From: Eledone cirrhosa
Taxonomy: Eukaryota
NCBI GenBank assembly: GCA_964016885.1
Contig: OZ024742.1
Span: 21,266,001 to 21,330,000, forward strand
DNA: 64,000 nt
Direction: 5' to 3'
The notes under the pieces were generated by a model, which did not search any database, was not told the origin of the DNA, and saw only the letters and a list, made by a program, of their open reading frames with translations. Made by a program: the position numbers and the translations under genes. Positions 4,579 to 57,181 of this stretch are shown in pieces. Numbering within the stretch: position 1 is the stretch's first letter; every line of letters starts with the position of its first letter.

Positions 4579-4924
4579 CTGATTGTAGATGTGGCCTGCC
4601 CATTCGACACGAGATTGTAAGAGAAGGAGAGGGAGAAAATTAACCGATACCGGGACTTAAAGTGGGAGGTAAAAAGGATTTGCAACTGCCATGAAGTCAA
4701 AGTGGTCCCGATGTCATAGGCGCACTAGGTTCTATCTCAAGGAGTTTCCAGGGTTGGTTAAAGAAAATTGGCCCCGCCCCGCTTTTTGGAACACTTCAAA
4801 AGGCATGCTTGTGGGAACAGCAAGAAGCCTCCGATACGTCCTGAATATCAGAGGCTGCAGGTAGTGGCTTGATATTCATTTCAACAAACTTTCCAGTTAA
4901 CTAATATCAATGACTGGACTCAAA
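4579..4924 (+). mobile_element. 5'-truncated R4/Dong-clade element (3' end only)
   Basis: Encodes degenerate LIVDVACPFDTR..KINRY..LKWEVK, matching the 3' end of 53608-57181; (AAT)n on both sides. Confidence 0.85.
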
Positions 4925-4956
<32 letters not shown>

Positions 4957-5201
4957 CTTTCTTTATTAACCACAAGGGTTTACATAAAGTAGACATTAAG
5001 GACAGTACAGGACAATACAGGACGGTACAAATGGGCATTTCTGCGTGTAAAAAAAAACAGAGGATGTAATAAAAATAACAATGAAAAATTCCCCAATAGG
5101 GGGGAGACTTGCGAGGGACATTTGTGGAGAAATCCCATTAAAAGGCCACAGTGACTCTGACCACCAGGGCAAGTGCCCTCTCCCAGTTTTCCACCTTTAA
5201 T

Positions 5202-8200
5202 TTACAGACACATACTCAGAGTAGGCCCATTCACTCGGGCCATACTTGCTTCTCTCACCCATCTTTCAACAAAATGCTGGGAAGAGAGCACTTCCCTCTC
5301 TACGCTGATTTTCCTTCTCAAATGAAATTTGAAAAAGTTAATCAGGGCATCAAAGAAGAGGTAAGTGCTCGTCTTCAGCCCTTTCAAACGTGTCCACCAT
5401 ACTATCTCTTTCGCCATGGCCACCAGACAGATAAAAACTTCCTGCTCTTCCCGGCTAAAGGAAGAGGGCGGGGCAATCCTCACGATGGACTCAGCTGACA
5501 GCTGGATCCGTCCTACACGTGACAGCAGGTGTTCGACATAAACCCACAAGTCAGCAATGCTCGGACACTGGACGAGTGCGTGCAGGACGGTTTCGTCGGT
5601 CTGCGCGCATCTCGGACATGCTCGGCCGACGGCACCTCCATGCCTGTAGAGTTTATCCCGAACTGGCAAAGCTCCTCGGTAGCACTGCCAGGCCAGGGAT
5701 TTCTGGAAGTTGTCCATAGGCCCCGGCCCAAAAGTCCTTCCGAAGAGATTGGCTAGTTGATTTTCGTCGACGCCTAGATTTTCTCCAAGTACGTCGTCGC
5801 TCTTCCCATCCACTAATCCTCTATAGAACGCCAAGGTGGAGTTTCCATCGATCACATTGCCCGATTGGTCGAGGGCTGTGAGCGCCTGAAGACATTCCAG
5901 TCTCCAGGCGCTCCCTCTCGGTCTTCGCTTGGCCCAGGACTGCAGCTCCGCCAAGGAGACGAGCTGGAGAAAGACGTGTCTAGCAAACGGCGACCACATC
6001 TGATCACCGTCGAGGAAGAGGTGGAGATGTCGTAGCCTGAGCGCGTTTCTGCGCATCATCAGCCACGGCCTTCCCAGCCCTCCACGTGGCGGGTGTTGAC
6101 AGCAGATGGACCGTCTGATCATCGGAGCGAGTCCATTCCACAAAAAGCGAAAGAGCAAACGCTCCAGCGCAGTCAGGCGGGGCTTAGGACAAGGTACGAC
6201 GGACAGGCGGTAGTAGATGACGGACGCGATGTACGCGTTAGCCACCTCCGCTCGACCTTTCAGGGATAGCTTCCTCTCCGCCCATTTCTGGGTGAGAGAA
6301 GCCACCCTGCTCGTCACATCGTCCCAGTTTTTGCCCGTCTGGAGGTCCGGACCGAACCAGACCCCTAGCAATTTAACTGGTCCGTCCGTCCAGCGCCCGA
6401 CGACGCTGTTGGACGGCATGGACCTGCCTCTCCAGGTGCCGAGCTGCAAGCCCACTGACTTTTCCTGGTTGATCATTGCTCCTGTCACTGCTTCGTATTC
6501 TCTTAGTGTAGTGCTCATCGCCTCGATGTGTTTGGCGTTCGACACCACTACGGTGACATCGTCCGCATATGCTGACACGGTTCTTCTGCATCCCAGTTCG
6601 CGCGGGACCCCCCCCTCAACGTCTCCAGTTTGTGCAGTAATGGCTCGAGAGTCAATACGTACAAGAGGGACAATAGGGGACATCCTTGGCGGACCGAGCA
6701 CATGATGTTGAATGGTTCCGAAAGGTGACCGTTCACTCTCACCACAGAGCAGATGTCGCTGTGCAAGGCAGCGATCCAGCCTCTGAAGACGGGCCCAAAG
6801 CCAGCCGCCCTCAGGACTGCCGCTAGGTAACGATGGTCGACCCTATCGAAAGCTTTCGACTGATCTAAATTGATCAAGGTCCCACCCGTGCCAGGTTCCC
6901 TAGCTCCCCTCTCCAATGTATCGTATGAGTTGGAGGTTGTCGTGGATAGATCTGTCGGGAATGGCGCATGTCTGCGCCTCTCCCACCAGACCACCAACGA
7001 CAAGCGCCAACCTCTTTGTTAGCACCTTGGGCAAAATCTTGAACTCTGTGTTTAGCAGAGTTATGGGCCAGAAATTATCTATGTTATCCCCCTTGTTCGC
7101 ATGCTTTCTCACCAGCGCCACCGCTCCTCGGCTCATAGAGCTGGGAATTTTCCCATTCTGTTGCCAGTTGCAGTAGACGTCCGCCAAGAGGCCTCCGAAC
7201 AATAAGTACGTAAAGTTCATAGGGCAGACCATCGAAACCAGGTGATTTACCCCTTGTGCAGCCAGTCATTGCCTCCCGTACTTCAGCGCCTGTTATCGGC
7301 TTTTTACAAAACTCCGCCTCATTGGCCGAGAGCCGCGGCAGTCCGTCGAGGTAGACACTAAAGTCTATCCCTCTACCCGATCCACCGCTGCCCCCGAACA
7401 GCTGAGCGAAGTGTCGCAGAAAAGCTTCACACATTTGCCCGGGATCGAGTAGCATGCGCCCGTCGTGGTCCACCAAAGACCGGATCGTGGCTTTGTTGCC
7501 ACGACGCGCCTCCGCCACTCGGGCTCATTGAACGGCTTTCGTCCCCTCGTGTTTGAGAGCACGCACCCTAGCTCTGACGACGCAGCCTTCGTCACTTTGC
7601 ATTGAAGAATTGGTCAAGGGCCAATTTCGCCGCAAGTACGTCGGTCGCGATGCCTTTGCTAAGTGCCCCGTCTAATTTTCTGACTAGTTCTCCCTCTGCT
7701 CTATTTTTCTCTATAGCTAAAGCCTTACTAAACCTAATGGACCCTATTCTAATCGCTCTTTTCAGAGCAAACCACCACTTGTTGTTGACAATGGCCCTCG
7801 TCAACGTCCGCTTTACTAATTCGTTAATCCGGTCTCTGTATGCCTTGCGCGTTGGTAAGGACGCATTTAGCTTCCAGTAGCCGGGTCCTTTTCTATGAAG
7901 CCTATCTAGGTCAAGCACACAGATCACGAATTTGTGGTCCGTGTAGCTGACTATCTTGAATTTTGGACAGCCTATGCTAGACCTATCTATTTCCCTACAA
8001 AATCACAGTCCCAGCGTGCATCTAAGATCCCGTTCCAGTCGCCCACTAACACTAAAGAGCGGGCGTTCCAAGAAAGGTCTCCAGACGCCGGTAGAAATCA
8101 GGCCGCCCTGCTTCTGTCGGGACATAGACGGCCACTAGCCTGAAAGCTTGCCCGTCTCCGCTGGTCACGTCCAGCACCACCAACTTACCTTCTAGCTCCA

Positions 8201-8446
8201 GGAAGATGGCCCGTATGGCGAAATCCAAACCTCTCCGAAAAAGGACAGCAACTCCTCCCCGATCCAGGACAACTGGGAGATGCGTACACATCGTAGTCGC
8301 CGAAGATCGGTGTGAAGGCTCGTGCTTCGGAGATTCTGGTCTCGCTGATGGCCACTACATCTATGTAGGTCGTTGAGCTGGTGGCCCTGCTTCTATGACG
8401 ATCCCAAACCACGCGCATTTATGCTGCCTATTCTGAGTGAGGTCAT
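5202..8446 (-). pseudogene. Tx1 ORF2 (APE endonuclease, RT, C-terminal CCHC), frameshifted, with a deletion in the endonuclease
   Basis: GYWKLN, KSPGFDG, PITLLNTEFKIL, LDQSKAFDRVDH, VRQGCP, YADD, CPRC..ETVLHALVQC spread over several ORFs. Confidence 0.9.
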
Positions 8447-8480
8447 GTTGAAAAGGAATGGAAAAGATGGGAAAGACCAC

Positions 8481-9889
8481 TTACCTTACTTCTCGTAGAG
8501 GAAGGATGGTTTCTCCATCCTTTTCACTGCTTGTGGCCTCCTCCGGAAGGATGTACTTATAAATCCTCCTGGAGAGTGCTTGTCGGAAGTCTCCGATGTC
8601 TTTGGGGAATTTTTGTTTTAGTGTCGTGTACGTCTTCTGTGTGATGCGAGTGATTTGTATGTGTGGAGGTGGTGTGAACTTTTGGATTGTTGTGTAGTCT
8701 GTTTTCTGTGATGCCGGTGTTGTGTTGGATGTAGTGTAATAATTGGTTGTTGTTCAAATTTAATGCTGTGTAGTGTGTATCGTTTTGTTTGTTTTGTTTT
8801 GTTTGCGTTTGTTGTGGGTTTGTTTCTGTTTCACTTTTTCGTGACTTTTGTGGTGTTGGTGATGGTGGTGTTGGTGTTTGTGGTGATGGGGTTGGTGATG
8901 CTGGTGTGGATGGTGGCATAGCTGTCCTAACTTTTTTGTTTGATAGTTTATTTGTTTCCCTCTGTATTTTGTTTTTGAAGGGGGAAGGAAGAGGATTTCT
9001 TTCTTTTTTGGCTTCTTTTTCTTTTTTCCTGATACAGTTTCCGACTCCTCGTCGTCACAATCTGTTTCCGGTTGCGATTGGTTGGGGAGTGGAAAATCCT
9101 CCACAGGCGTTGGTTTTGGTTGTGGCGTGGTGGATGGTGGAGGCGCTGGTGCTAGTTCTGGCGCGGTGGGTGGTGGTGGTGTTGGTTTTGCTACTGTTGC
9201 TGGTGTTGTTGCTGCTACAGTTGCTTCTGTTGTTGCTGCTACAGTTGTTGCTGCCATTGCTGCTGCTGGTGGTGTTGATGGTTGAGTCACTGGGGTGGGT
9301 AAGAGAGGTGGCCTCAACTTTTTAGCCTGAGGGCAGAAAGCCTTTAGGTGGGTTCCTTCACCACAAACGACACACCCAGGCCTTCTACCGTCGACGATTA
9401 CGGTGAGATGGCTGCCTCAGTGAGAGCTATTACCTGTGGGATTTCCTCAATGCTTTTTTGGTCCGCTTGGATCAGTAGCTTCATCCCAGATCTGGACCAG
9501 TCCTCCTGCTTTTCTTTTGATATTTCAATTATTTTGATGTTGGCCTCGATGCCGGCGAGGACGGCAGCCACTAGCCAGGGAATTTCGATTGCCGGTGGAA
9601 CGTGGGTCACCTTGATCTTCACGAGTCTCTGGCCACAATAGATTGGGACGAGTGTGAAGTCGTCACTTCTTAATGGGGCCATGGAGTGTTCTCTAGCCTC
9701 CTGTGGTGTTTCAAAGAACACGTCCACGGTTCCATATGTCTGCCCACGTCTGATGTTTGTTTTTTTCGCACACACATGTCCCAAAGCTTTTGGGATTTGG
9801 GACTCGCATGCCCGATCCACTCGGCGCGACTTTGTGTTAATCGTCCGATAAGACACGGTGCATAGGTGCCGATGCTCCATTTTATTAGC
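8481..9889 (-). pseudogene. Tx1 ORF1 remnant (RRM-like region, zinc knuckle, Pro/Thr-rich tail)
   Basis: ORFs 9398-9880, 8760-9317 and 8557-8919 are collinear with ORF1 of copy C. Confidence 0.8.
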
Positions 9890-29174: not shown

Positions 29175-29304
29175 AACCAAATAAATATATATATTTTAAA
29201 AAAAATAAGACTTCAGTTGCATTTTCGATTTCATCCCTTTTTCTTTATACTTCCACTCGTGTAGGACACCTCGGTTATTTTTCATTTTGTAAAAAAAACC
29301 TCAC

Positions 29305-35637: not shown

Positions 35638-36430
<793 letters not shown>

Positions 36431-38719: not shown

Positions 38720-38774
<55 letters not shown>

Positions 38775-38990
38775 GAATGCTATGGTTGACAGGAGGCTCG
38801 GCTCTGTAAGTTATTGTAAATTTTGACCGCTATAACAATTGTAAATTGTTTAAAACTTTAATCAACTTGTAGACAAAAACACCCTCCTCCTCGTGAGAGG
38901 GGTCTTTCTGCCCGTTATTTGGCTATTCGGGGTTAAATAACCGCTTATTGGGGTTTTGTGCCCAATATTTATTTTAAACAAAAAAACAAC

Positions 38991-41120
38991 ATGGCTACGA
39001 AAAAGAATTGTCATAGGTCACTCCCACTCATTCCGTCTTCTTCTTCTTCAATCGTCACTACAGCAGAGAGAAGATTGTCTCTCTCCCTCCCTTCTCTAAA
39101 TGTGTCTCTCTCCCTCCGTTCTCTTTCGCAAGCGACGCCAGAAAAGAAAAATCACGTGCAAAGCGAGCAAGATTTCTCCACGACGACGACGACAACGACG
39201 AAAAAGGTGTGCGGGAAATACGAAAACCCATTTCATTCGTCTGACGTCAGGAATAATAGCAGTAGCAGCCGTATTAACAGCAGCAACATTGACAAGGAAA
39301 ACAACAGTAGCAGCCACGACAGCATCAGCAGCAGCATAAACAACAACAGCATTAGCAGCAACAACAACAGCAGCAGCAGCAGCAACAACAACAACAACCA
39401 CAGCAACAGCGGCGGCGGCAGTAGTCGTAGTACCTGCAGCAACAACAAAAGTAAGAGCAGATCTGACGACAACAACAACAACAAAAGCAGCAAAGAAAAA
39501 CCAATCTCGTTTGCAGGTATCGCAAAGAACCTGGAAACCATCCTCATAACAAATGAGGAATTAGAGGAAGCGAAGAAGATGGTGACAAAAACTGGACACC
39601 GAGCAATCTGCAAGGCAGCCGAAATTTTTTTCGAAACCCAACAGCACTGTACGGTCACGTACCGTACAGTAAGTACAAAATCCCGTAGGGTTGAAAGAGC
39701 CACAGAGGCTCAAATACAAAAAGCCTTGGGGTATGTGTGGCAGCGGAAAACGCACATCACCCGAGGCAAGAAATATGCCACCGTAGACGTACTTTTTGCC
39801 ACACCCCAGAAAGCAAAGGCTCAATCCTTAGTGACCCTAAGGAGCGAGGAAATGGTGTTGGTGCCCTCCTACTGCGGGCAAAAACTTGTGAGGGTCAAAC
39901 TGACCCCCCCCCCCGGGATGGCCCCTTCTTGGCTGGCCGCGTCTGTCCTCGTCGGAATCGAGGACAAAACAACTGTACTGCAAGTACAGTATAAAGTAAG
40001 AGAAGATTGGGTCGGCACCTCCATTGAGATATTAATCCAAACCAACCAGGAGTGCATCGAAGCTATCCCGGATGTGATAGACTTCGATAACGGCACTCAA
40101 CTGCCAATAAGTGTTGAGGGCAAACGCCCGAAATGCTTTCGCTGTGGATCGAAGACTCACCTCAGGGCCTTCTGCAACGAGAAGACCCTGAGAAAGGAGA
40201 AAATCCCCCTCCTTCCGAAACCGGCTCCACGGCTCCCAGCAACAGGACAAGCGGCAACCAGGAACGATAGGTCCGTGGCACCCATACCCACATCACGGAA
40301 ATCAAAAACAGCAGCAGCAGTGGAAGTATTAACAACAACAACAACAATACCAAATGCAGCTGCAACAGAGACTCCAGTGCAAACATCACCAACAACAACA
40401 AGTGAAAGAGTGGAGCTGGTACCCCTCCCCAACCTCACAGAATCAGACATGGAGTGTGAGGTGGGATAGGGATGGCAAAAGGTCGTAAGAAGGCACAAAC
40501 GCAGAAGCAGCGCATCGTCGCCTTTGATAAGGGAGGAAAGAAATGAAAAAAGGGTAAAGGCTACTGCAAAGAGACTCACAGCAGCAACACCACCAACACC
40601 ATCACCACCCCCACTAGCACCACCATCACCACCGGCGACAACCCCACCGCCAGCAACAACAACACCTTCAACACCACCACCACAAGCACCAACATCGCAA
40701 ACACAACAACAAAACACACACACCCAGCAACAAAGACAAGAAAATAGTAGAGCCACACCTCACCCCCAGAAAAACAAATGCACGGCATTAAATACACACA
40801 ACAAGAAACTAATGACTTGAATAATTGAACACACAGACATTTCACAGCACGCCTACATAATACCAGCACCAATCAAAACGCCAACTAACATAAGACTGCT
40901 AAAAATAGCACAGAAACAAGACACAAACATTAAAACGAAATTCCCCAACGCAGTTGGTGATTTCAGAGACCTAGGAGGGTCACTTAACCGAAGAGTATAT
41001 TCGGACATACTCATAGAAGAGCCGACGACCAGCCGAAGGGACGATTCAACGGTCCCTTCACCAGACGATCAAGTGCAATGGGATGGAAAAACCATCCCTC
41101 CTCTACGAAAAGTGCGGTAA
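38991..41120 (+). pseudogene. Tx1 ORF1 type B (Ser/Asn-rich N-terminus, RRM-like region, CCHC knuckle)
   Basis: CFRCGSKTHLRAFC; in-frame stop at 40467; ends PLRKVR*. Confidence 0.8.
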
Positions 41121-41155
41121 GTGGTCTTCCCCATCTTTTCCACTCTATTTTAAAC

Positions 41156-44100
41156 ATGACCTCACTCAGAATAGGCAGCATAAATGCGCGTGGCTTGGGG
41201 TCGTCATGGAAGCAGAGTCACCTGCTCAACGACCTCAGGTCACTAAACATAGATGTAGTGGCCATCAGCGAGACCAGAATCTCTGAAGCACGGGCCTTCG
41301 CACCGATCTTCGGCGGCTACGATGTGTACGCATCTCCCAGCCGTCCTGGATCGGGAGGAGGACTTGCTGTGCTTTTTCGGAGAGGTTTGGATCTCGCCAT
41401 ACGGGCCATCTTCCTGGACCCAGAGTGTAAGTTGGTGGTGCTGGACGTGACCAGCAGAGACGGGCAAGCTTTCAGGCTAGTGGCCGCCTATGCCCCGACA
41501 GGAGCAGGGCGGCCTCATTTCTTCCGGCGTCTGGAGACCATTCTTGGAACGTCCCGCTCTTTAGTGTTAGTGGGGGACTGGAACGGGATCTTAGATGCAC
41601 GCTGGGACTGTGTGGGATTAGCGGATAGGGGTGGAGGGTGTAAGAGTCTCATCAACCTGCTCAGGCGTTTTGAACTGTCTGAAAGGTACCGATTGTATTT
41701 CCCGAATGTGCCAATGTGGACTTGGACAAATCGCATAAGGTCATCTAGATCATATCTAGATAGAGTATTTTGTAGAGAAATAGATAGGTCTAGCATAGGC
41801 TGTCCACAATTCAAGATAGTCAGCTACACGGACCACAAATTCGTGATCTGTGTGCTTGACTTAGATAGGCTTCATAGACGAGGACCCGGCTACTGGAAGC
41901 TAAACGCGTCCTTACCAGCGCGCAAGGCCTACAGAGACCGGATTAGCGAACTAGTTAAGCGGGCGTTGACGGGGGCCATCGTCAACAACAAGTGGTGGTT
42001 TGCTCTGAAAAGAGCAATTAGAATAGAGTCCATTAGGTTTTGTAAGGCTTTAGCAATAGAGAAAAATAGAGCAGAGGGAGAATTAGTTAGAAAATTAGAC
42101 GAGGCGCTTAGCAACGGCATCGCGACCGACGTACTTGCGGCGAAATTGACCCTTGACCAATTCTTCAATGCAAAGCGTGCTCTCAGACACGAGGGGACGA
42201 AAGCCGTTCAATGGGCCCGAGTGGCGGAGGCGCGTCGTGGCAATAAAGCCACGATCCGGTCTTTGGTGGACCACGACGGGCGCATGCTACTGGATCCCGG
42301 GTAAATGTGTGAAGCTTTTCAGCGACACTTCGCTCAGTTGTTCGGGGGCAGTGGCGGGCCGGATCGAGGGATGGACTTTAGTGTCTACCTCGATGGACTG
42401 CCGCGGCTCTCGGCCACTGAGGCGGAATGTTGCGAAAAGCCGATAACAGCCGCTGAAGTAAGGGAGGCAATGACTGGCTGCACAAGGGGTAAATCGCCTG
42501 GTTTGGAAGGTCTGCCCTATAGACTTTACGTACAGATGCCAGACTTGTTCGGAAGCCTCTTGGCGGACGTCTACTGCAACTGGCAACAGAACGGGAGAAT
42601 TCCCAGTTCTGTGAGCCGAGGAGCGGTGGCACTGCTGAGAAAGGATTGGAACAAGGGGGATAACATAGATAATTTCCGGCCCATAACTCTGCTAAACACA
42701 GAGTTCAAGATGTTGGCCAAGGTGCTAGCAAAGAGGTTGGCGCTTGTCGTTGGTGGTCTGGTGGGAGAGGCACAGACATGCGCCATTACCGACAGATCCA
42801 TCCTCGACAACCTCCACCTCATGCGATACATCATAGAGAGGGTAGCTAGGGAACCTGGCACGGATGGGTCCTTGATCAATTTAGATCAGTCGAAAGCTTT
42901 CGATAGGGTCGACCATCGTTACCTAGCGGCAGTCCTGAGGGCGGCTGGCTTTGGGCCCGTCTTCAGAGACTGGATCGCTGCATGCACAGCGACATCTGCT
43001 CTGTGGTGAAAGGGAACAGTCACCTGTCGGAACCGTTCAACATAATACGCCCGGTTCGCCAACGATGTCCCTTCTCCTCCCTCTTGTACGTATTGACTCT
43101 CGAGCCATTACTGCACAAACTGGAGACGTTGAGGGGCGTCCCGCGCGAACTAGCATGCGGAAGTTCCGTTTCAGCATATGCGGACTATGTCACCGTAGTG
43201 GTGTCGAACGCCAAACATATCGAGGCGATCGGCACTACACTAAGAGAATACGAAGCGGTGACAGGAGCAATGATCAACCAGGAAAAGTCAGTGGGCCTGC
43301 AGTCGGCACATGGAGAGGCAGGTCCATGCCGTCCAACAGCTTCGTCGGACGCTGGACGGACGGACCGGTTAAATTGCTAGGGGTCTGGTCGGTCCGGACC
43401 TCCAGACGGACAAAAACTGGGACGAGGTGACGAGCAGGGTCGCTTCTCTCACCCAGAAATGGGCTGAGAGGAAGCTATCCCTGAAAGGTCGAGCGGAGGT
43501 GGCTAACGCGTACATTCGCGTCTGTCATCTGCTACCGCCTGACTGTCGTACCTTATCCTAAGCCCCGCCTGACTGCGCTGGAGCGTTTGCTCTTTCGCTT
43601 TTGGTGGAATGGACGCGCTCCGATGGTCAGGCGGTCCATCTGCTGTCAAAACCCGCTACGTGGAGGGCTGGGAATGCCGTGGTTGATGATGCGCAGACAC
43701 GCGCTCAGGCTACGACATCTCCACCTCTTCCTCGACGGTGATCAGGTGTGATCGCCGTTTGCTAGATACGTATTTCTCCAGCTCGTTTCCTTGACGGAGC
43801 CGCAGTCCTGGGTCAAGCGAAGACCGAGAGGGAGCGCCTGGAGACTGGAATGTCTTCAGGCGCTCACAGCCTTCGAAAAATCGGGCAATGTGATCGGTAG
43901 AAACTCCACCTCGGCGTTCTATAGAAGATTAGTGGAGTGGAAGAGCGACGACGTACTTGGGGAAACTCTAGGCGTTGACGAAAATCAACTAGCCAATCTC
44001 TTCGGAAGAACTTTCGGGCCGGGACCTATGGACAACTTCCAGAAATCTCTGGCCTGGCAGTGCTACCGAGGAGCCTTGCCAGTTCGGGATAAACTCTACA

Positions 44101-44543
44101 GGCATTGATGTGCCGTCAGTCGGGCATGTCCGAGATGCGCGCAGGGCGACGAAACCGTCCTGCACGCACTCGTCCAGTGTCCGAAAATTGCTGATTTGTG
44201 GGTTTATGTCGAACACCCGCTGTCGCGTGTAGGACGGATCCCGCTGTCATCTGAGTCCATCGTGAGGATTTCCCCGCCCTCTTCCTTTAGCCGGGAAGGG
44301 CAGACAGTTTTTATCTGTCTGGTGGCCATGGCGAAAGAGATAGTATGGTGGACACGTTTGAAAGGGCTGAAGACGAGCACTTACCAGTTCGGTGATGCCC
44401 TGATTACCTTTTTCAAATACCATTTGAAAAGGATAATCAGGGTAGAGAGGGAAGTGCTCTCTTCCCAGCATTTTGTTGAAAGTTGGGTGAGAGAAGCAAG
44501 AATGGCCCGAGTGAATGTGCCTACTCTGAGTACGTATCTGTAA
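41156..44543 (+). pseudogene. Tx1 ORF2 (APE-RT), disrupted
   Basis: SINARG, ISET, GDWN, YLDR, TDH, KAFDRVDH; YADD changed to YADY; several stops and frameshifts. Confidence 0.9.
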
Positions 44544-44822
44544 ATTAAAGGTGGAAAACTGGGAGAGGGCACTTGCCTTGGTGGTCAGGGTCACTGTGGT
44601 CTTTTACTGGGCTTTCTCCACAAATGTCCCTCCGAAGTCTCCCCCCTATTGGGGAATTTTTCTTTGTTATTTTATTACATCCTCTGTTTTTTTACACGCA
44701 GAAATGTTCATTTGTACCGTCCTGTATTGTCCTGTACTGTCCTTAATGTCTACTTCGTGTAAACCCTTGTGGTTAATAAAGAAAACATTATTATTATTAT
44801 TATTATTATTATCGTCGTTATT

Positions 44823-47777
44823 CCTTGAATGTCAGTCATTGATGTTGGTTAACTGGAAAGTCCGTTGGAATGAATATCAAGCCACTACCTGCAGCCTCAG
44901 ATATTCAGGACGTATCGGAGGGTTCTTGCTGTTCCAAGCAAGCATGCCTTTTGAAGCGTTCCAAAAAGGTGAAGGGGCCGATTTTCTTTAACCATCCCTG
45001 GAAACTTTTGGAGATAGTCCCCAGTGCGCCTATGACAATCGGGATCACTTTGACTTCATGGCAGTTCCAAATCCTTTTCACCTCCCACTTTAGGTCCTGG
45101 TATCGGTTAATTTTCTCCCTCTCCTTCTCTTGCACTCTCGTGTCGAAAGGGCAGGCCACATCCACAATCAGACACGATCTTTTTTCTTTGTCCACAACCA
45201 CCAGGTCAGGTCTATTGTGTTCCAGTTTTTTGTCCGTCTGTATCCAAAAATCCCACAGCACCTTCACCTGATTGTTCTCCATCACCGCCTTTGGCCTGTG
45301 CTCATACCATTTCTCAGAATGTGGTAAATTGTTTACTTTGCACAGGTGCCAGTGGATCACCCTGCCCATCACATCGTGTCTCTAGCCCTTATAGTGGGTC
45401 TGGGCTAGGTGTTTACACTCGGACACAATGTGAGCCACAGGCTCCTCTCTCTCCCCACAGATCCTGCACAGTGGGCTAGCCTCCTCCTTGTAAATATGGT
45501 GCTTCAACCACTTCGTTTTGAGGGCCTGCTCCTGCGCAGCCATTAGCATTCCTTCTGTAGCCTTTTTGAGGTCTCCTCTTCTCAACCAGTTCCATGTCTG
45601 TGGATCTCTAAATTCAGTTTTCTCAAAGAAGGTACTATGAAGGGATTTTCCCTTAAGGCTGCTCTTCCTCCTTGATGTTATTTCCTCCTTGGACATCCCC
45701 TGGCCTACTGTCCCCTACTTCAGTACAGTTCTGAGCATTGGCTCCTTACTATAGGTCACGTATTTGTATAGGTTGTTTTTCTCCATCTGAACACAGTCCT
45801 CTATGCTGATAAGACCTATTCCACCCTCAGATCTCCTTAGGTAGAGTCTATCAACATCACACCTCTTGTGGAACATGTTGTAGATAGTCAATAGCTTCCT
45901 AGTCTTCCTATCCATTTCTTTTTGTTCAGCAACATTCCATCTCAGAATTCCCGCACTGTACCTAATAATAGACACAGCTCGGGAATTTACTGCGCTTATG
46001 GCATTTCTGCTGTTCAGATATGACTTCAATACGCTCCTTATTCTCCGAATGTATTCAGTTCTTAACAATTCCTTCATTTTTTTGTTCTTTATGCCATCAG
46101 CCTCCAGAACGCCCAAATACTTGTATCCTTCCTCAGAGTCAATTTCCTTTATCATCTCACCTGTTGGTATCTGGATCCCGTTACTTCTGCTCAACCTACC
46201 CCTCCTGATCACAATGACTCCACATTTACTAATAGCAAACTGCATACATATATCACTGCTGAAAATACGGACAGTGTCAACAAGCACATCCAACTCCTTC
46301 TCACTTTTCCCGAAGAGCTTAAGATCGTCCATGAAGAGGAGGTGATTGATGTAAAGCTCTCCCTTTCCCAACTTGTATCCTACTCTCACTTTTCGCAGCA
46401 TAATGGTCAAGGGCATCAGGGCAAGGACAAACAACAGAGGGGACAGGCTATATCCCTGGAAGATACCTCTCTTGATCTTCACGCTTCCCAAGGATACTCC
46501 AGTTGATGTCAACTCTGTCTCCCAGGACCCCATACTCCTGCCCAGCAACTGTCTGATGTTATCTGCCACCCTGACGATCTCCAGGCTTTTGGTGATCCAA
46601 GAATGAGGCACCATGTCAAATGCCTTTCTGTAGTCTATCCATCCCATGGCAAGATCAGTGTGTCTCCTCCTGCAATTCCCCATTACCATCTTATCAATAA
46701 GTAACTGGTCCTTTGTACCACGTGACTTCTTTCGGCATCCTTTCTGTTCGCCCGGTAACAAGTTGTTTGTGTGGAGGTGATGGTAGATTTCCTCAGACAC
46801 AATGCTCGTCAACAGTTTCCACATTACGGACAGACATGTGATAGGTCTATAGTTGGTAACATCATTACCCTTGATTCGGTCTTTCATTATCAGAACTGTG
46901 GTACCTTTTGTCAACCACTCTGGCACCTCACCCGACACCAAGCAGTCATTGAACATGGCCGTCAGCTTCGGGTGGAGGGATGTTAAATTTGTAATCCAAT
47001 ACCCCTGCACACCATCTGGGCCTGGTGATTTCCAGTTGGTTAGTTTTTTGGCCTGCTCCTTAAGAGTTTCAACTGTGATACTCAAATCAGTTTGTCGGTG
47101 TGCCTGCTCACCGATCTCCCTCTGTACTGTCTCAATCCACCCTGCCTGGACATTATGTCTAACATCCTGCTCCCATATTCCTCTCCAGAATGTTTTAGTT
47201 TGCTCCGCCCCACGGATCAAGTCGTTGCCTCTTTCTTTCCCCTCAAGCTGTCCAAACAGCATCTTCTGGTTGTTGTCGAACATGCGGTTCTGTTTATACT
47301 GACTGACTCTGTTCTCGTATCGCCTGATTTTTGCACTCTTTGCTACAATGCGTTGCTTCAGTTCCTCTATGATAATATTTAGCTTTTTCCTCCTAGTTTT
47401 GTACTTTATTTCCAGTCTATTTTTAGTGCCTATGTTTTTTAGTGTCCCATTCAGTAGTGACTCTAGCTTTCCTATGTCATTTCTCATTTCCCCGATTTGA
47501 CCACTCAGTCGTTTCTTCCACCACGGCTCTGCTCTTTCTTGTCTGTTGTTTCCTCTCGCTTTTATACCAAGTAGTTTCCTCACCGTATTTGCTGTTGCTT
47601 TGAGGATATTGTTGCACTGGTGAAGGCTCCTCGCCTCAAGGTATGGGATGACTTTGTTTACCTTAGCTGTTGTTTCTTTTAACTTTTTCCTGTCTACAAA
47701 TTTAGGTTCATAGGTCTCCGACTATCATTGTTCAATTCATCTACCACTAAATTTAGGATGTCAACCGAATCTTGTCC

Positions 47778-47779
<2 letters not shown>
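44823..47779 (-). mobile_element. R4/Dong-clade element, 5'-truncated, with nonsense mutations
   Basis: Near-identical to 53608-56567; TAG stops at 45715 and 45382; QGD changed to QGY; (ATT)n on both sides. Confidence 0.93.
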
Positions 47780-47856
<77 letters not shown>

Positions 47857-48067
47857 GGCGACCTACGTAGTAAATCGTATCATCGTGAGCTCCGCAAAGT
47901 TTTGTTATTTCTGTTTGTTAAAATATTGCCATTTATAGAGAATTTTTATTGTTAACTATATATAAGCGCACATACATTGCTTTCCGAAAAGGACACCCAA
48001 AAAGATTGGGGCCTTGTGCCCCAAATTTAAACTTTTATGATTATCAAAAAATTTCTTTGAAAAAAAA

Positions 48068-50061
48068 ATGGCTAATTCACCACTGCACCAAGCAGCTGAA
48101 AGCCTTTCTCACAAATTAACACCTCACACCGACACTACCATTGTAAATGATTATACGTCTTCCAACACAAACAATTTAAGCACTAGCAATATTTTAAATT
48201 TGTCTCAGGCAGACATTCATTTCCCGCCATTACCAATGACTGCAGGTGTTAAAGCCGCCACCACCACCACCACCACCGCGACAACCACCACCCCCACCAC
48301 CACCGCGAAAACAGAAACAAAAGGAAAAAATAAATCAGCTCGTGATGTCGAAATATTTTCAACCAAAATGGACTCTCCCAAACCGACTTTCACTGACGTC
48401 ACCACCACCACAACTGAAACTAAAATTAATAATAACAAAAATAACGATAGCAACAACAACAACAACAACAATGACATTAAAAAAACCACCCTGGGTTTTG
48501 CCAGAGTAGCAAAACAGTTCGAAGCATTTACGGTAACTCAAGAGGATTTAGAAAATGCCAAACAAATGGTAAAGAAAGATGGGTACAGGGTCGGCCTCGC
48601 CCCCGCACCTAATAAAATGGAGCATCGGCGCCCATGCACCGTGTCGTATCGAACAATAAATGTAAAATCGCGCCGAGTGGAACGGGCATCTGAGTCCCAA
48701 ATCCAAAAAGCTATGGGACATGTGTGGGCAAGAAAAACCCACATCAGACGTGGGCAGAAGTATGGAACCGTGGACGTGTTCTTTGAAACACCAGAGGAGG
48801 CTAGAGAACACTCCATGGCCCCCATTAAGAAGTGACGACTTCACACACGTCCCAAGCTATTGTGGCCAGAGACTCGTAAAGATCAGGGTGTCCCACGTTC
48901 CAGCGGCCATCGAAATTCCATGGCTAATAGCGGCCGTCCTCGCCGGCATCGAAGCTAACACAAAGATAATAGCAATAGCAAAAGAAAAGCAGGAGAACTG
49001 GTCCGGATCTGGGATGGAGCTCCTGATCCAAGCGGACCAAAAAAGCATTGAGGAGATCCCAGAGGTAATAGACCTCACTGATGGCAGCCACCTCACCGTA
49101 ATTGTCGAGGGCAGAAGGCCTAGGTGTGTCGTTTGTGGTGAAGGAACCCACCTAAGGGCTTTCTGCCATCAGGCTAAAAGGTTGAGGCCACCTCTCCTAC
49201 CCACCCCAGTGACACAACCATCAACATCACCAGTAGCAGAGATGGCAGCAACAACTGTAGCAGCAACAACAGAAGCAACTATAACAGCAACAACCCCAGC
49301 AACAGTAGCAAAACCACCACCACCACCACCAGCAAAACCAACACCACCACCACCCAACGCTTCAGAACTAGCACCAGCGCCTATACCATCTACCACGCCA
49401 CAACCAAAACTAACGCCTGTGGAGGATTTTCCACTCCCCGGCCTATCACAACTGGAGACAAATTATGACGACGAGGAGTGGGAAACGGTATCAGGAAAAA
49501 AAAAGAAACCAAAAAAGAAAAAATTCTCTTCCTTCCCCCTCCAAAAACAAAATACAGAGGGAAACAAATAAATTAACAAACATAAAAGTTAGGACAGATA
49601 TGCCACCATCCACACCAGCATCACCAAGCCCATCAACACAAACACCAACACCATCACCATCATTAACCCCAACACCACCATCACCTACACCACAAAAGTC
49701 ACCAAAATGCGAAACAGAAACAAACCCACAACAAACACAAACAAAACAAAACAACCAAAACGATACACACTACACAGCATTAAATTTGAACAACAAGCAA
49801 TTATTACACTACATCCAACACAACACCAGCATCACAGATAAAGACTACACAACAACCCAAAAATTCACACCACCTCCACACATACAAATCACTCGCATCA
49901 CACAGAAAACGTACATAACACTAAAACAAAAATTCCCCAAAGACATCGGAGACTTCCGACAAGCACTCTCCAGGAGGATTTATAAGGACATCGTTCCTGA
50001 GGAGGCCACAAGCAGTGAAAAGTATGGAAAAACCGTCCTTCCCCTACGAGAAGTAAGGTAA
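48068..50061 (+). pseudogene. Tx1 ORF1 type A/C, two frameshifts
   Basis: ORFs 48068-48835, 48720-49571 and 49465-50061; CVVCGEGTHLRAFC knuckle. Confidence 0.8.
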
Positions 50062-50095
50062 GTGGTCTTTCCCATCTTTTCCACTCCTTTTCAAC

Positions 50096-53000
50096 ATGAC
50101 CTCACTCAGAATAGGCAGCATAAATGCGCGTGGCATGGGGTCGTCATGGATGCAGGGCCACCTGCTCAACGACCTCAGGTCACTAAACATAGATGTAGTG
50201 GCCATCAGCGAGACCAGAATCTCCGAAGCACGGGCCTTCGCACCGATCTTCGGCGTCTACGATGTGTACGCATCTCCCAGCCGTCCTGGATAGGGGGAGG
50301 ACTTGCTGTGCTTTTTCGGAGAGGTTTGATCTTGCCATACGGGCCATCTTCCTGGAGCCAGAAGGTAAGTTGGTGGTGCTGGACGTGACCAGCGGAGAAG
50401 GGCAAGCTTTCAGGTTAGTGGCCGTCTATGCCCCGACAGGAGCAGGGCGGCCTGATTTCTTCCGGCGTCTGGAGACCATTCTTGGAACGTCCCGCTCTTT
50501 AGTGTTAGTGGGCGACTGGAACGGGATCTTAGATGCACGCTGGGAATGTGTGGGATTAGTGGATAGGGAAGGAGGGTGCAAGAGTCTCACCAACCTGCTC
50601 AGGCGGTTTGAACTGTCTGACAGGTACCGATTGGATTTCCCGAATGTGCCAATGTGGACTTGGACAAATCGCATAAGGTCATCTAGATCATATCTAGATA
50701 GAGTATTTTGTAGGGAAATAGATAGGTCTAGCATAGGCTGTCCACAATTCAAGATAGTCAGCTACACGGACCACAAATTCGTGATCTGTGTGCTTGACTT
50801 AGATAGGCTTCATAGACGAGGACCCGGCTACTGGAAGCTAAACGCGTCCTTACCAGCGCGCAAGGCCTACAGAGACCGGATTAGCGAACTAGTTAAGCGG
50901 GCGTTGACGGGGGCAATCGTCAACAACAAGTGGTGGTTTGCTCTGAAAAGAGCAATTAGAATAGAGTCCATTAGGTTTAGTAAGGCTTTAGCAATAGAGA
51001 AAAATAGAGCAGAGGGAGAATTAGTTAGAAAATTAGACGAGGCGCTTAGCAAAGGCATCGCGACCGACGTACTTGCGGCGAAATTGGCCCTTGACCAATT
51101 CTTCAGTGCAAAGCACGAAGGCTGCGTTGTCAGAGCTAGGGTGCGTGCTCGCAGACACGAGGGGACGAAAGCCGTTCAATGGGCCCGGGTGGTGGATGCG
51201 CGTCGTGGCAATAAAGCCACGATCCGGTCTTTGGTGGACCACGACGGGCGCATGCTAATCGATCCCGGGCAAATGTGTGAAGCTTTTCAGCGACACTTCG
51301 CTCAGCTGTTCGGGGGCAGTGGCGGGCCGGATCGAGGGATGGAATTTAGTGTCAACCTCGACGAACTTCCACGGCTTTCGGCCACTGAGGCGGAGAATTG
51401 CGAAAAGGCGATAACAACCGCTGAAGTACGGGAGGCAATGACTGGCTGCACAAGGGGTAAATCACCTGGTTTAGATGGTCTGCCCTATGAACGTTACGTA
51501 CAAATGCCAAACTTGTTCGGAGGCCTCTTGGCAGACGTCTACTGCAACTGGCAACAGAACGGGAGAATTCCCAGCTCTGTGAGCCGAGGAGCGGTGGCGC
51601 TGCTGAGAAAGGATCCGAACAATGGGGATAACATACATAATTTTAGGCCCATAACTCTGCTAAACACAGAGTTCAAGATTTTGGCCAAGGTGCTAGCAAA
51701 GAGGTTGACGACTGTCGTTGGTGGTCTGGTGGGAGAGGCACAGACATGCGCCATTCCCGACATACGCCATTCCCGTCTTCAGAGGCTGGATCGCTGCCAT
51801 GCACAGCGATATCTGCTCTGTGGTGAGAGTGAACGGTCATCTTTCGAAACCGTTCAACATCATACGCTCGGTCCGCCAAGGATGTCCCCTCTCGTCCCTA
51901 TTGTACGTATTGACTCTCGAGCCATTACTGCACAAACTGGAGACGTTGAGGGGGGTCCCGCGCGAACTAGGATGCGGAAGATCCGTGTCAGCATATGCGG
52001 ACGATGTCACCGTAGTGGTGTCGAACGCCAAACACATCGAGGCGATCGGCACTACACTAAGAGAATACGAAGCGGTGACAGGAGCAATGATCAACTAGTA
52101 ATAGTCAGTGGGCTTGCAGCTCGGCACCTGGAGAGGCAGGTCCATGCCGTCCAACAGCGTCGTTGGGCGCTGGACGGACGGACCGGTTAAATTGCTAGGG
52201 GTCTGGTTCGGTCCAGACCTCCAGACGGACAAGGTGACAAGCAGGGTGGCTTCTCTCACCCAGAAATGGGCCGAGAGGAAGCTATCCCTGAAAGGTCGAG
52301 CGGAGGTGGCTAACGCGTACATCGCGTTCGTCATCTACTACCGCCTGACCGTCGTACCTTGTCCTAAGCCCCGCTTGACTGCGCTGGAGCGTTTGCTCTT
52401 TCGCTTTTTGTGGAAGGGACTCGCTCCGATGATCAGACGGTCCATCTGCTGTCAACACCCGCTACGTGGAGGGCTGGGCATGCCGTGGCTGATGATGCGC
52501 AGACACGCGCTCAGGCTACGACATCTCCACCTCTTCCTCGACGGTGATCAGGTGTGGTCGCCGTTTGCTAGACACGTTTTTCCCCAGCTCGTCTCCTTGA
52601 CGGAGCTGCAGTCCTGGGTCAAGCGAAGACCGAGAGGGTGCGCTTGGAGACTGGAATGTCTTCAGGCGCTCACAGCCCTCGACCAATCGGGCAATGTGAT
52701 CGTAGAAACTCCACCTTGGCGTTCTATAGAGGATTAGTGGAGGGTAAGAGCGACGACGTACTTGGAGAAACTCTAGGCGTCGAAGAAAATCAACTAGCCA
52801 ATCTCTTCGGAAGGACTTTCGGGCCGGGGCCTATGGACAACTTCCAGAAATCCTTGGCTTGGCAGTGCTACCGGGGTGCTTTGCCAGTTCGGGATAAACT
52901 CTACAGACATGGAGGTGCCGTCAGCCGGGCATGTCCGAGATGCGCACAGACCGACAAAACCGTCCTGCACGCACTCGTCCAGTGTCCGAGCATTGCTGAC

Positions 53001-53311
53001 TTGTGGGTTTATGTCGAACACCTGCTGCCAGGTGTAGGACGGATCCATCTATCAGCTGAGTCCATCGTGAGGATTGCCCGCCCTCTTCCTTTAGCCGGGG
53101 AGGGCAGGCAGTTTTTATCTGTCTGGTGGCCATGGCGAAAGAGATAGTATGGTGGACACATTTGAAAGGGCTGAAGACGAGCACTTACCTCTTCGATGAT
53201 GCCCTGATGGTAGAGTGGGAAGTGCTCTCTTCCCAGTATTTTGTTGAAAGATGGGTGAGAGAACCAAGTATGGCCCGAATGAATGGGCCTTCTCTGAGTA
53301 TGTGTCTGTAA
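50096..53311 (+). pseudogene. Tx1 ORF2 (APE-RT), disrupted, internal RT deletion near 51765
   Basis: Same motifs as copy B; the LDQSKAFD block is missing. Confidence 0.9.
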
Positions 53312-53537
53312 ATTAAAGGTGGAAAACTGGGAGAGGGCACTTGCCCTGGTGGTCTTTTAATGGGCTTTCTCCACAAATGTCCCTCGGAAGTCTCCCCCCT
53401 ATTGGGGAATTTTTCTTTGTTATTTTATGACATCCTCTGTTTTTTACACGCATAAATGCCCATTTGTACCGTCCTGTATTGTCCTGTACTCTCCTTAATG
53501 TCTACTTTATGTAAACCCTTGTGGTTAATAAAGAAAA

Positions 53538-53595
<58 letters not shown>

Positions 53596-53607: not shown

Positions 53608-56600
53608 CCTTGAATCTCAGTCATTGATGTTGGTTAACTGGAAAGTCCGTTGGATTGAATATCAAGCCACTACCTGCAGCCTCAGATATTCAGGACGTAT
53701 CGGAGGGTTCTTGCCGTTACAAGCAAGCATGCCTTTTGAAGCGTTCCAAAAAGCGTGAAGGGGCCGATTTTCTTTAACCATCCCTGGAAACCTTTGGAGA
53801 TAGTCCCCAGTGCGCCTATGACAATCGGGATCACTTTGACTTCATGGCAGTTCCAAATCCGTTTCACCTCCCACTTTAGGTCCTGGTATCGGTTAATTTT
53901 CTCCCTCTCATTCTCTTGCACTCTCGTGTCGAACGGGCAGGCCACATCCACAATCAGGCACGATCTTTTTTCTTTGTCCACAACCACCAGGTCAGGTCTA
54001 TTGTGTTCCAGTTTTTTGTCCGTCTGTATCCTAAAATCCCACAGCACCTTCACCTGACTGTTCTCCATCACCGCCTCTGGCCTATGCTCATACCATTTCT
54101 CAGAATGTGGTAGATTGTTTACTTTGCACAGGTGCCAGTGGATCACCCTGCCCATCACATCGTGTCTCCAGCCCTTATAGTGGGTCTGGGCTAGGTGTTT
54201 ACACTCGGACACAATGTGAGCCACAGTCTCCTCTCTCTCTCCACAGATCCTGCACAGTGGGCTAGCCTCCTCCTTGTAGATATGGTGCTTCAACCACTTC
54301 GTTTTGAGGGCCTGCTCCTGCGCAGCCATTAGCATTCCTTCTGTAGCCTTTTTGAGGTCTCCTCTTCTCAACCAGTTCCATGTCTGTGGATCTCTAAATT
54401 CAGTTTTCTCAAAGAAGGTACTATGAAGGGATTTTCCCTTAAGGCTGCTCTTCCTCCTTGATGTTATTTCCTCCTTGGATATCCCCTGGCCTACTGTCCC
54501 CTCCTTCAGTACAGCTCTGAGCATTGGCTCCTTACTATAGGTCACGTATTTGTATAGGTTGTTTTTCTCCATCTGAACACAGTCCTCTATGCTGATAAGA
54601 CCTCTTCCACCCTCAGATCTCCTTAGGTAGAGTCTATCGACATCACTCCTCTTGTGGAACATGTTGTAGATAGTCAATAGCTTCCTAGTCTTCCTATCCA
54701 TTTCTTTTTGTTCAGCAACATTCCATCTCAGAATTCCCGCACTGTACCTAATAATAGACACAGCTCGGGAATTTACTGCGCTTATGGCATTTCTGCTGTT
54801 CAGATGTGACTTCAATACGCTCCTTACTCTCCGAATGTATTCAGTTCTTAACAATTCCTTCATTTTTTTGTTCTTTATGCCATCAGCCTCCAGAACGCCC
54901 AAATACTTGTATCCTTCCTCAGAGTCAATTTCCTTTATCATCTCACCTGTTGGTATCTGGATCCCGTTACTTCTGCTCAACCTACCCCTCCTCATCACAA
55001 TGACTCCACATTTACCAATACCAAACTGCATACATATATCACTGCTGAAAATACGGACAGTGTCAACAAGCACATCCAACTCCTTCTCACTTTTCCCGAA
55101 GAGCTTAAGATCGTCCATGAAGAGGAGGTGATTGATGGTAAGCTCTCCCCTTCCCAACTTGTATCCTGCTCTCACTTTTCGCAGCATAATGGTCAAGAGC
55201 ATCAGGGCAAGGACAAACAACAGAGGGGACAGGCTATCTCCCTGGAAGATACCTCTCTTGATCTTCACGCTTCCCAAGGATACTCTAGTTGATGTCAACT
55301 CTGTCTCCCAGGACCCCATACTCCTGCCCAGCAACTGTCTGATGTTATCTGCCACCCTGAAGATCTCCAGGCTTTTGGTGATCCAGGAATGAGGCACCAT
55401 GTCAAATGCCTTTCTGTAGTCTATCCATCCCATGGCAAGATCAGTGTGTCTCCTCCTGCAATTCCCCATTACCATCTTATCAATAAGCAACTGGTCCTTT
55501 GTACCACGTGACTTCTTTCGGCATCCTTTCTGTTCGTCCGGCAACAAGTTGTTTGTGTGGAGGTGATGGTAGATTTCCTCAGACACAATGCTCGTCAACA
55601 GTTTCCACATTACGGGCAGACATGTGATAGGTCTATAGTTGGTAACATCATTACCCTTGATTCGGTCTTTCATTATCAGAACTGTGGTACCTTTTGTCAA
55701 CCACTCTGGCACCTCACCCGACACCAAGCAGTCATTGAACATGGCCGTCAGCTTCGGGTGGAGGGATGTTAAATGTTTAATCCAATACCCCTGCACACCA
55801 TCTGGGCCTGGTGATTTCCAGTTGGTTAGTTTTTTGGCTTGCCCCTTAAGAGTTTCAACTGTGATACTCAAATCAGTCTGTTGCTGTGCCTGCTCACCGA
55901 TCTCCCTCTGTACTGTCTCAATCCACCCTGCCTGGGCATTGTGTCTAACATCCTGCTCCCATATTCCTCTCCACAATGTTTTAGCTTGTTCCGCCCCAGG
56001 GATCAAGTCGTTGCCTCTTTCTTTCCCCTCAAGCTGTCCAAACAGCATCTTCTGGTTGTTGTCGAACATGCGGTTCTGTTTATACTGACTGACTCTGTTC
56101 TCGTATCGCCTGATTTTGGCACTCTTTGCTACAATGCGTTGCTTCAATTCCTCTATGATAATATTTAGCTTTTTACTCCTAGTTTTGTATTTTATTTCCA
56201 GTCTATTTTTAGTGCCTATGTTTTTTAGTGTCCCATTCAGTAGTGACTCAAGCTTTCCTATGTCATTTCTCATTTCCTCGATTTGCCCACTCAGTCGCTT
56301 CTTCCACCACGGCTTTGCTCTTTCTTGTCTGTTGTTTCCTCTCGCTTTTATACCAAGTAGTTTCCTCACCGTATTTGCTGTTGCTTTGAGGATATTGTTG
56401 CACTGGTGAAGACTCCTCGCCTCAAGGTATGGGATGACTTTGTTTACCTTAGCTGTTGTTTCTTTTAACTTTTTCCTGTCTACAAATCTTAGGTTCATAG
56501 GTCTCCCACTATCATTGTTCAACTCATCTACCACTAAATTTAGGATGTCAACCGAATCTTGTCCTAGCCCGTCAGCATTCATCTCCTCAGTGGCCGTATC

Positions 56601-57181
56601 TCTGTTCCAGGTATTATTTATCTCAGTATTCAGATCATTGTTTGCTTCGGGTGGTTCCTCCGTTCTCAGGACCTCCTCACCTTCATTTCCCGCTGGCTCG
56701 CTTGTCTGGCATACTACACCCGCCATCTCCAAGCCATTCTCTCTGCTCAGTTCCTCCAGTTCCAGCTCGCTTATCCACCCATTAGTTCTTATTACCCGAG
56801 CCTGCCCGGCCAATTTTTGTTCATCTAATTTAAATAAACCAATCTCGTTCCAGATGTTATGCATCCGTCTCCTGTAGCCCCTCTCCTTGGGGTTACTTTT
56901 CAGGTAGCATTGCATAACAGTTCTATTCAATTCTTTCGTCCAGTTGGTTCTGGCCCCTTTCCTTCTTCTTCTTCCTCCAACATCAGCAGTATTTGGTTGA
57001 CAGTCAGGTTCCTGCTGCTGAGCCAGGGGGCACCTGTTGGGTGAGAGTCTGTCACATGACGTTCTAGTCTCCATTTCACCGTTATTCGAACTGTTTATGT
57101 TCGATATTTAAACACTCTTATCGAGGATTGGCGAATGTATGTTTACATAGCCATCTGTGGATCCGCCATCCCACTTGGCCC
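53608..57181 (-). mobile_element. R4/Dong-clade retrotransposon, apparently full length
   Basis: Single ORF with short UTRs, flanked by (TAA)n on its sense strand, consistent with the known Dong target. Confidence 0.93.
53682..57074 (-). CDS. intact 1130-aa RT-RLE protein
   Basis: Myb-like WTKELN..W N-terminus, IDYRKAFD, GIFQGDSLSP, FMDD, CRIC..H...C, RHD, RPD..D..K..Y. Confidence 0.93.
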   Translation of the reverse strand: METRTSCDRLSPNRCPLAQQQEPDCQPNTADVGGRRRRKGARTNWTKELNRTVMQCYLKSNPKERGYRRRMHNIWNEIGLFKLDEQKLAGQARVIRTNGWISELELEELSRENGLEMAGVVCQTSEPAGNEGEEVLRTEEPPEANNDLNTEINNTWNRDTATEEMNADGLGQDSVDILNLVVDELNNDSGRPMNLRFVDRKKLKETTAKVNKVIPYLEARSLHQCNNILKATANTVRKLLGIKARGNNRQERAKPWWKKRLSGQIEEMRNDIGKLESLLNGTLKNIGTKNRLEIKYKTRSKKLNIIIEELKQRIVAKSAKIRRYENRVSQYKQNRMFDNNQKMLFGQLEGKERGNDLIPGAEQAKTLWRGIWEQDVRHNAQAGWIETVQREIGEQAQQQTDLSITVETLKGQAKKLTNWKSPGPDGVQGYWIKHLTSLHPKLTAMFNDCLVSGEVPEWLTKGTTVLIMKDRIKGNDVTNYRPITCLPVMWKLLTSIVSEEIYHHLHTNNLLPDEQKGCRKKSRGTKDQLLIDKMVMGNCRRRHTDLAMGWIDYRKAFDMVPHSWITKSLEIFRVADNIRQLLGRSMGSWETELTSTRVSLGSVKIKRGIFQGDSLSPLLFVLALMLLTIMLRKVRAGYKLGRGELTINHLLFMDDLKLFGKSEKELDVLVDTVRIFSSDICMQFGIGKCGVIVMRRGRLSRSNGIQIPTGEMIKEIDSEEGYKYLGVLEADGIKNKKMKELLRTEYIRRVRSVLKSHLNSRNAISAVNSRAVSIIRYSAGILRWNVAEQKEMDRKTRKLLTIYNMFHKRSDVDRLYLRRSEGGRGLISIEDCVQMEKNNLYKYVTYSKEPMLRAVLKEGTVGQGISKEEITSRRKSSLKGKSLHSTFFEKTEFRDPQTWNWLRRGDLKKATEGMLMAAQEQALKTKWLKHHIYKEEASPLCRICGEREETVAHIVSECKHLAQTHYKGWRHDVMGRVIHWHLCKVNNLPHSEKWYEHRPEAVMENSQVKVLWDFRIQTDKKLEHNRPDLVVVDKEKRSCLIVDVACPFDTRVQENEREKINRYQDLKWEVKRIWNCHEVKVIPIVIGALGTISKGFQGWLKKIGPFTLFGTLQKACLLVTARTLRYVLNI

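Follow-up and report, generated by a model that had tools for sequence, protein, structure and literature searches.

Why do the long interspersed nuclear elements (LINEs) in this part of the Eledone cirrhosa genome carry a consensus 5' splice site just where their first open reading frame (ORF1) ends? The window, that is, the whole stretch of 64,000 nt analysed here (contig OZ024742.1, 21,266,001 to 21,330,000), holds three LINE copies, A and C of type F1C and B of type F1B, all of them decayed copies of an element with an apurinic/apyrimidinic endonuclease (APE) and a reverse transcriptase (RT). A preliminary description had reported that in all three copies GTAAGT lies over the ORF1 stop, that an AG-free, pyrimidine-rich spacer follows and that the first AG falls in codon 5 of ORF2, and had proposed that splicing there makes an ORF1-APE-RT fusion protein in place of termination-reinitiation. 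These observations were confirmed: GTAAGT starts at 50058 (+) in C, 41117 (+) in B and 8484 (-) in A, ORF1 ends in ...LREVR-TAA with the TAA at donor positions +2 to +4, the ORF2 ATG lies at 50096, 41156 and 8446, the first AG ends at 50109, 41169 and 8433, and excising 52, 53 and 52 nt brings ORF1 and ORF2 into one frame. In copy C (forward strand), the motif AAG/GTAAGT occupies 50055..50063, with intron position +1 at 50058 and the overlapped TAA at 50059-50061; the spacer (50064..50095) ends in CAAC before the ORF2 ATG (50096..50098), a start codon retained here in 10/10 representatives examined, and the CAG of codons 4-5, the proposed acceptor, is at 50107..50109. Copy B reads GCG/GTAAGT at 41114..41122 (+). 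The donor signal is thus real, and its conservation turned out far deeper than three copies could show, but its purpose as an in-frame fusion is unsupported. On balance, and with some reserve, we believe instead that the boundary carries a conserved 5' splice site, a predicted site for the U1 small nuclear ribonucleoprotein (snRNP), which would control RNA processing and not protein fusion.

The evidence that carries this interpretation is the conservation of the motif as nucleotides. Families F2 to F8 were recovered from the same genome with degenerate patterns and a protein query (F5 and F6 with few copies each; F7, a single decayed copy, was excluded from the counts), and between the families of this genome ORF2 identity is 59-87%, with fourfold-site differences of 0.19-0.58. 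Together with a distant lineage described below, GGTRAGT was found at the boundary in 8/8 family representatives despite 19-89% fourfold-site divergence, its positions being identical in all eight but for a single A/G substitution in F6, which gives GTGAGT, itself a consensus donor. When the eight representatives were aligned on the donor, positions -3 to +6 agreed in 7-8/8, and elsewhere agreement was mostly 3-6/8. Under an order-2 Markov model the chance that GGTRAGT stands no more than 55 nt from the ATG is about 0.003-0.006 per element, and that of AGGTAAGT in the 55-nt interval of the saturated lineage is <0.001. All families of this genome keep the donor, a pyrimidine-rich spacer of variable length and an ATG 37-41 nt past the donor (one F5 copy has a shortened spacer), while the reading frame over the donor changes: it lies in phase 2 of ORF1 in F1, in phase 1 in F2, F3, F4a, F5, F6 and F8, where ORF1 ends in G-K-stop or G-E-stop after up to 640 open codons, and in phase 0 in F4b (199 copies). 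The peptide does not fix the motif either, because a conserved G-K/R dipeptide of ORF2 encodes it in only 3/9 representatives. In fact, a second AAG/GTAAGT lies over E-G-K codons within ORF2 of copy C (50362..50370, +) and is not kept in F3, F6, F8 or the distant lineage, and it can therefore be used as an internal control.

The distant lineage came from a scan of prokaryote genome contigs, which yielded 40 loci (L165-L204) in a single record, CAXXMW01 ('uncultured Arenicella sp.'), as tandem arrays of a related LINE that are probably misbinned host DNA or contamination. Its ORF2 is 41% identical, its ORF1 is homologous, and its fourfold-site differences (0.75-0.89) are saturated. Here the junction reads GAG TAA G/GTAAGT, then 7 further bases and the ATG, in 8/8 sequence variants seen, and a looser pattern scan reconfirmed the motif among the distant-lineage copies listed. 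With the donor placed past the end of ORF1 and 13 nt ahead of the ORF2 ATG, splicing from it could never join the two ORFs and would always take out the ATG; distant homologs likewise begin ORF2 with Met at this position. A TGA in the ORF1 frame overlaps the ATG. There is also a second GTRAGT 14 nt past the ORF2 stop, in both GTGAGT and GTAAGT forms; in the three commonest variants a U-rich tract of variable make-up comes next, and a YAG stands 34-37 nt away, a mini-intron-like module noted at L187, L182 and L197. No further distant junctions were found in viral contig scans, and metagenome contigs gave one locus only (L164, see below); a QET-type pattern had a single match in the genome, which was judged to be chance. 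The donor is, then, a motif selected as nucleotides and independent of the ORF1 frame, with no conserved acceptor nearby, and its conservation across three phases and outside ORF1 argues against a fusion intron.

The predicted partner of the motif fits a splice donor. By computation, the 5' end of the host U1 small nuclear RNA, taken from the genome, forms 7-9 Watson-Crick pairs with the donor in 10/10 representatives, in agreement with the U1-pairing consensus of U2-type 5' splice sites. The host 18S rRNA contains no exact complement of GGTAAGT and its pairing is weaker than that of U1; an exact complement exists, at one site, for the rare GGTGAGT form only. The 18S match itself (L271) spans ~2,870 nt, against 1,831 positions in the model. 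No conserved hairpin over the donor was seen in the representatives.

In contrast with the donor, which is kept in every family, neither acceptor nor phase is kept in the related families. The CAG of codons 4-5 is in frame in F1 only, because only there is the donor in phase 2; even in F1 the 15 bases before it include 9 pyrimidines with the ORF2 ATG among them, and the pyrimidine tract does not adjoin the AG. Across the families the codon-5 AG (CAG, TAG or AAG) has 7-9/15 pyrimidines ahead of it; it falls out of frame in every phase-1 family and is absent from the distant lineage. It belongs to an Arg codon, and these ORF2s use AGR for 31-68% of their Arg residues. F3, F4a, F5 and F8 have an in-frame TAG 5 nt beyond it; F2 lacks this TAG and offers no AG in frame over 100 nt, F5 has its first AG out of frame, and GAG is all that F6 has. 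A YAG directly before the ATG, 28-36 nt past the donor and preceded by 12-15 pyrimidines in 15 bases, exists in F4, F6 and F8 and is absent from F1, F2, F3 and F5. Thus, the conserved YAG with an adjacent pyrimidine tract expected of a U2-type acceptor is not found. Some joins do favour a fusion. F1, whose first AG is the in-frame CAG, is the largest family; if only YAG acceptors at least 45 nt away are allowed, F3, F4a and F8 join in frame too (TAG, 53-58 nt), making four of eight families, three of them through one inherited TAG; and F4b would be in frame through a 30-nt intron. The TAG join, however, would remove a conserved hydrophobic residue aligned with I9 of the L1 endonuclease. It had also been pointed out that the phase is kept in copy B despite its longer spacer, which is true and yet uninformative, as phase is set by the two ends of the intron and 1 extra nt between them cannot alter it.

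Fused copies should be common in the genome if RT came from the proposed fusion RNA and the element preferred its own RNA in cis. We searched for them with exact junction-spanning patterns, from which mutated copies of both classes escape and some of which can miss joins to an exon beginning with G. The F1 junction pattern gave 3,415 unspliced copies, against 0 intron-less copies for the exact proposed join in the whole genome; in the human genome, by comparison, L1 copies derived from spliced RNAs still able to make ORF2p number 131 among 6,609 full-length copies, about 2% (PMC5860796). Wider F1 patterns, which took in the remaining local acceptors as well as most joins that the donor could otherwise make, had 2, 49 and 1 matches. 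The 49, some of them same-place repeats, were small indels or substitutions save three, and the three F1 copies departing from the consensus near the donor were rejected as spliced, being a fragment, an inversion and a deletion beginning before the donor. The set of 2 consists of F1B copies at separate loci (L255:1500 and L256:1500), 92% alike and with a common deletion of ~60 nt; one reading places its end at the codon-5 CAG, yet it lacks a GT start and is out of frame, and was rejected as the proposed product. Exact spliced copies were likewise not found in F3, F4a and F8 (1,042 unspliced), F4b (199) or F2 (70). In protein databases there was no fused protein among the 3 longer homologs that matched the ORF2 N-terminus, no hit at all for the ORF1 C-terminus as query, and no ORF1 fusion in the 23 of 150 homolog representatives considered, all of which is weak evidence. 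The replacement of termination-reinitiation by a fusion protein is therefore poorly supported, with no fused copies and with neither phase nor acceptor conserved, which are two of the three outcomes that the preliminary description had named as refuting it.

The in-frame join of F1 seems to have a more recent origin. From ~41 nt before the end of ORF1 through the spacer and ORF2, copy B matches C (92-99% identical in ORF2), against 46% in the 200 nt upstream of the switch, and is therefore not independent of it, as the preliminary description had cautioned for the three spacers. In F1B elements ORF1 is of F2 type precisely as far as the F2 donor (in copy B this part ends at 41067..41073, +), and F1C sequence takes over directly after a CAG that lies 41 nt ahead of the F1C donor (L102-L105, L249-L252), with one extra base that restores the frame of the ORF1 tail. 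This is the join that splicing would make; the CAG has no pyrimidine tract, and the chimera could come from a splice between tandem copies or from a template switch at the shared AG. The family tree places F1 beside F2 (96/99), nested among the phase-1 families; the values of its F1B row, a frameshifted copy, were not used, nor were those of a frameshifted F2 copy in a separate comparison. Several F1 copies without a 4-nt repeat read E-G-K like the phase-1 families, and one of them has the TGA too. Because of this reading and of the nesting of F1, phase 2 is likely derived, and the in-frame join would have arisen incidentally when a 4-nt duplication shifted the ORF1 stop onto the donor.

How might a 5' splice site serve such an element? 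Two-ORF LINEs obtain much ORF1 protein, little ORF2 protein and a full-length genome out of one RNA, which is usually ascribed to translation. We suggest that U1 bound at the donor would shield the 6-kb RNA from early cleavage and polyadenylation, and that the unspliced RNA would act both as genome and as mRNA for ORF2, read from its own ATG. A minority of transcripts, spliced or ended early, may give an RNA for ORF1 alone, which would account for the excess of ORF1 protein and, without ORF2 in cis, would rarely be copied back. Replicating copies do retain the motif unspliced, and the ORF2 ATG is kept in every family. L1 ORF2 is translated by termination-reinitiation, and that mode for ORF2 is compatible with the U1 model. 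We infer the protective role by analogy with the gag-end donor of the Arabidopsis Copia element EVD, where U1 has been proposed to have two effects, permitting splicing to a Gag-only RNA and keeping full-length transcripts from ending early (PMC5580714). In both elements a strong donor sits close to where the ORF for the structural protein ends, an ORF that is Gag-like in this LINE, and in EVD the unspliced RNA is likewise genome and enzyme mRNA (PMC5580714). They differ in that EVD, a long terminal repeat (LTR) element, has one gag-pol ORF, and its intron and poly(A) site have been demonstrated (PMC5580714), whereas ours is a two-ORF LINE whose ORF1 has its own stop and in which no conserved acceptor or poly(A) site was found. 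U1 binding at the major splice donor of foamy virus suppresses polyadenylation independently of splicing, acting on a defined poly(A) signal of the LTR at the 5' end (PMC3694450), while the LINE donor has no defined target. Closest in kind is human L1, with its spliced integrated retrotransposed elements (SpIREs): it is a LINE that contains splice signals, shows cis-preference and has a stop in the spacer between its ORFs, but donors described for it lie in the 5' untranslated region (UTR) and not at an ORF boundary, and its spliced RNAs are copied back (PMC5860796), of which we found no instance here. In the full-text literature no report of an inter-ORF LINE intron or donor, or of an ORF1-ORF2 fusion, was found (subscription papers, Repbase and Dfam lay outside this scope).

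Several observations weigh against the U1 interpretation. AATAAA/ATTAAA hexamers number 0-3 in the last 860 nt of ORF1 and 0-2 in ORF2, as in shuffled sequence, and although they occur upstream of the donor in 6/8 representatives they are not enriched there. A conserved acceptor in the 3'UTR was rejected for the families of this genome, a strong one existing in F1 only and F8 having no AG after its U-rich tract; donors after ORF2 are only weak in these families. Older single copies have weakened donors, possibly through decay. The evidence at saturated distance is carried by a single deeply divergent lineage from one record, and the 24%-identity locus of the metagenome contigs (L164) has no donor before the ATG and no evident ORF1. 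Finally, the absence of spliced copies counts only on the condition that these elements act preferentially on their own RNA in cis, as human L1 has been shown to do (PMC5860796).

Among the alternatives, the one that survives best, although we regard it as unlikely, is that these LINEs, with mini-introns or alternative donors after their stop codons, would let the spliceosome yield the genome, an ORF1-only message and, in some families, a trans-acting ORF1-APE-RT fusion. Under such a scheme the distant-lineage donors after ORF1 and ORF2 could share one 3'UTR acceptor, and the same donor may have made new families by splicing between tandem copies, as in F1B. Less probable is a signal coupling translation, in which motif and spacer would promote termination-reinitiation at ORF2 and be a donor in appearance only. 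The motif does lie within about 6 nt of the ORF1 stop in all families except F4b, the ATG and its context are kept, and in the distant lineage the TGA overlaps the ATG and a second motif stands just past the ORF2 stop. However, the variation is of splice-donor type (GTAAGT/GTGAGT with AG ahead), the only exact 18S complement is the one for GGTGAGT, and the distance from donor to ATG is unequal (13 against 37-41 nt).

It is more doubtful still that the motif has no function and reflects inherited G-K-stop codons plus chance. Six families of this genome end ORF1 in G-K/E-stop over it, the families share ancestry and recombine, and about 0.2-0.6 GGTRAGT are expected by chance per element, F1C having a second perfect one. 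Yet the motif survives two frame changes and a non-coding position, the residues ahead of it do not align between families, and its chance near the ATG is as low as given above. Marginally weaker again is the idea that the donor, the tract and, in some families, the YAG form an intron mimic, too short for removal, that would mark the intronless RNA as pre-mRNA and aid its export or its escape from silencing. In its favour are the pyrimidine tract and YAG of F4, F6 and F8, the similar 34-37-nt module in the 3'UTR of the distant lineage, and the finding that unspliced introns shield reporters from HUSH in human cells (PMC8770142); but that protection grew with intron length and a small artificial intron or splice signals alone were ineffective (PMC8770142), and F1, F2, F3 and F5 lack the YAG before the ATG. 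Least probable of all is the original proposal, a 52-nt intron giving an ORF1-APE-RT protein that acts in trans on unspliced RNA, which the F1 reading frame and the F1B join favour and which fails on the missing fused copies, the families with no usable in-frame AG, the ORF1 stop ahead of the distant donor and the ORF2 ATG kept everywhere.

The element itself has the features of the Tx1/L1 group of LINEs. Copy C (F1C, Tx1-like; 47778..53595, +) is decayed by frameshifts, ends in AATAAA and (ATT)n and was matched by blastn to an intact genomic copy (L111) with 625 open codons of ORF1 and an ORF2 of 1,139 aa. That ORF2 has an N-terminal APE, an RT and a C-terminal zf-RVT (PF03372, PF00078, PF13966), its closest solved relative being human L1 ORF2p (E 4e-50); the separate upstream ORF1 carries a CCHC knuckle, CX2CX4HX4C, and had nothing above cut-off in a Pfam search; and the 3' end is an AATAAA followed by an (ATT)n simple-repeat tail. 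The narrower label Tx1 is a provisional one, taken over from the preliminary description. Membership of Ty1/Copia (an LTR element with a single gag-pol ORF) was ruled out, as this is a two-ORF APE/RT element. Copy B (38749..44812, +) is the chimera of an F2-type ORF1 with the F1C tail, spacer and ORF2, and copy A (4923..9888, -; donor +1 at 8484, codon-5 AG ending at 8433) is probably 5'-truncated because its match starts inside ORF1. Tandem arrays of these LINEs are present in the genome. F8 is very young, with many copies with an intact ORF2 (1,150-codon open frame), some in head-to-tail arrays with a 5.84-kb period (L210-L237), and two F4b copies at different loci (L071 and L080) have a common start ~45 nt before the donor, directly after (TAT)n. 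A second LINE family lies at 53682-57107 (-) and 45715-47721 (-), the former copy being a 1,141-codon open frame with RT motifs, and frames resembling by eye, from their translation, Penelope-like RT and GIY-YIG fragments were seen at 27888-29195 (-), 24014-24874 (+) and 35645-36106 (+). A tectonic-3-like gene model of Octopus sinensis (P0002) opens with part of a related ORF2, which it quits at LDPE, where copy C has its second donor (50362-50370); its N-terminus could not be matched to ORF1.

A donor held over saturated distance and in three frames points to a layer of RNA processing in these LINEs that parallels the U1 switch of Copia. As the donor is a mutable target of 9 nt, rescuable by a compensatory U1, the idea is cheap to test. 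The second donor within ORF2 may splice into host genes, and the more than 4,700 boundary donors in the genome could likewise splice element sequence into them.

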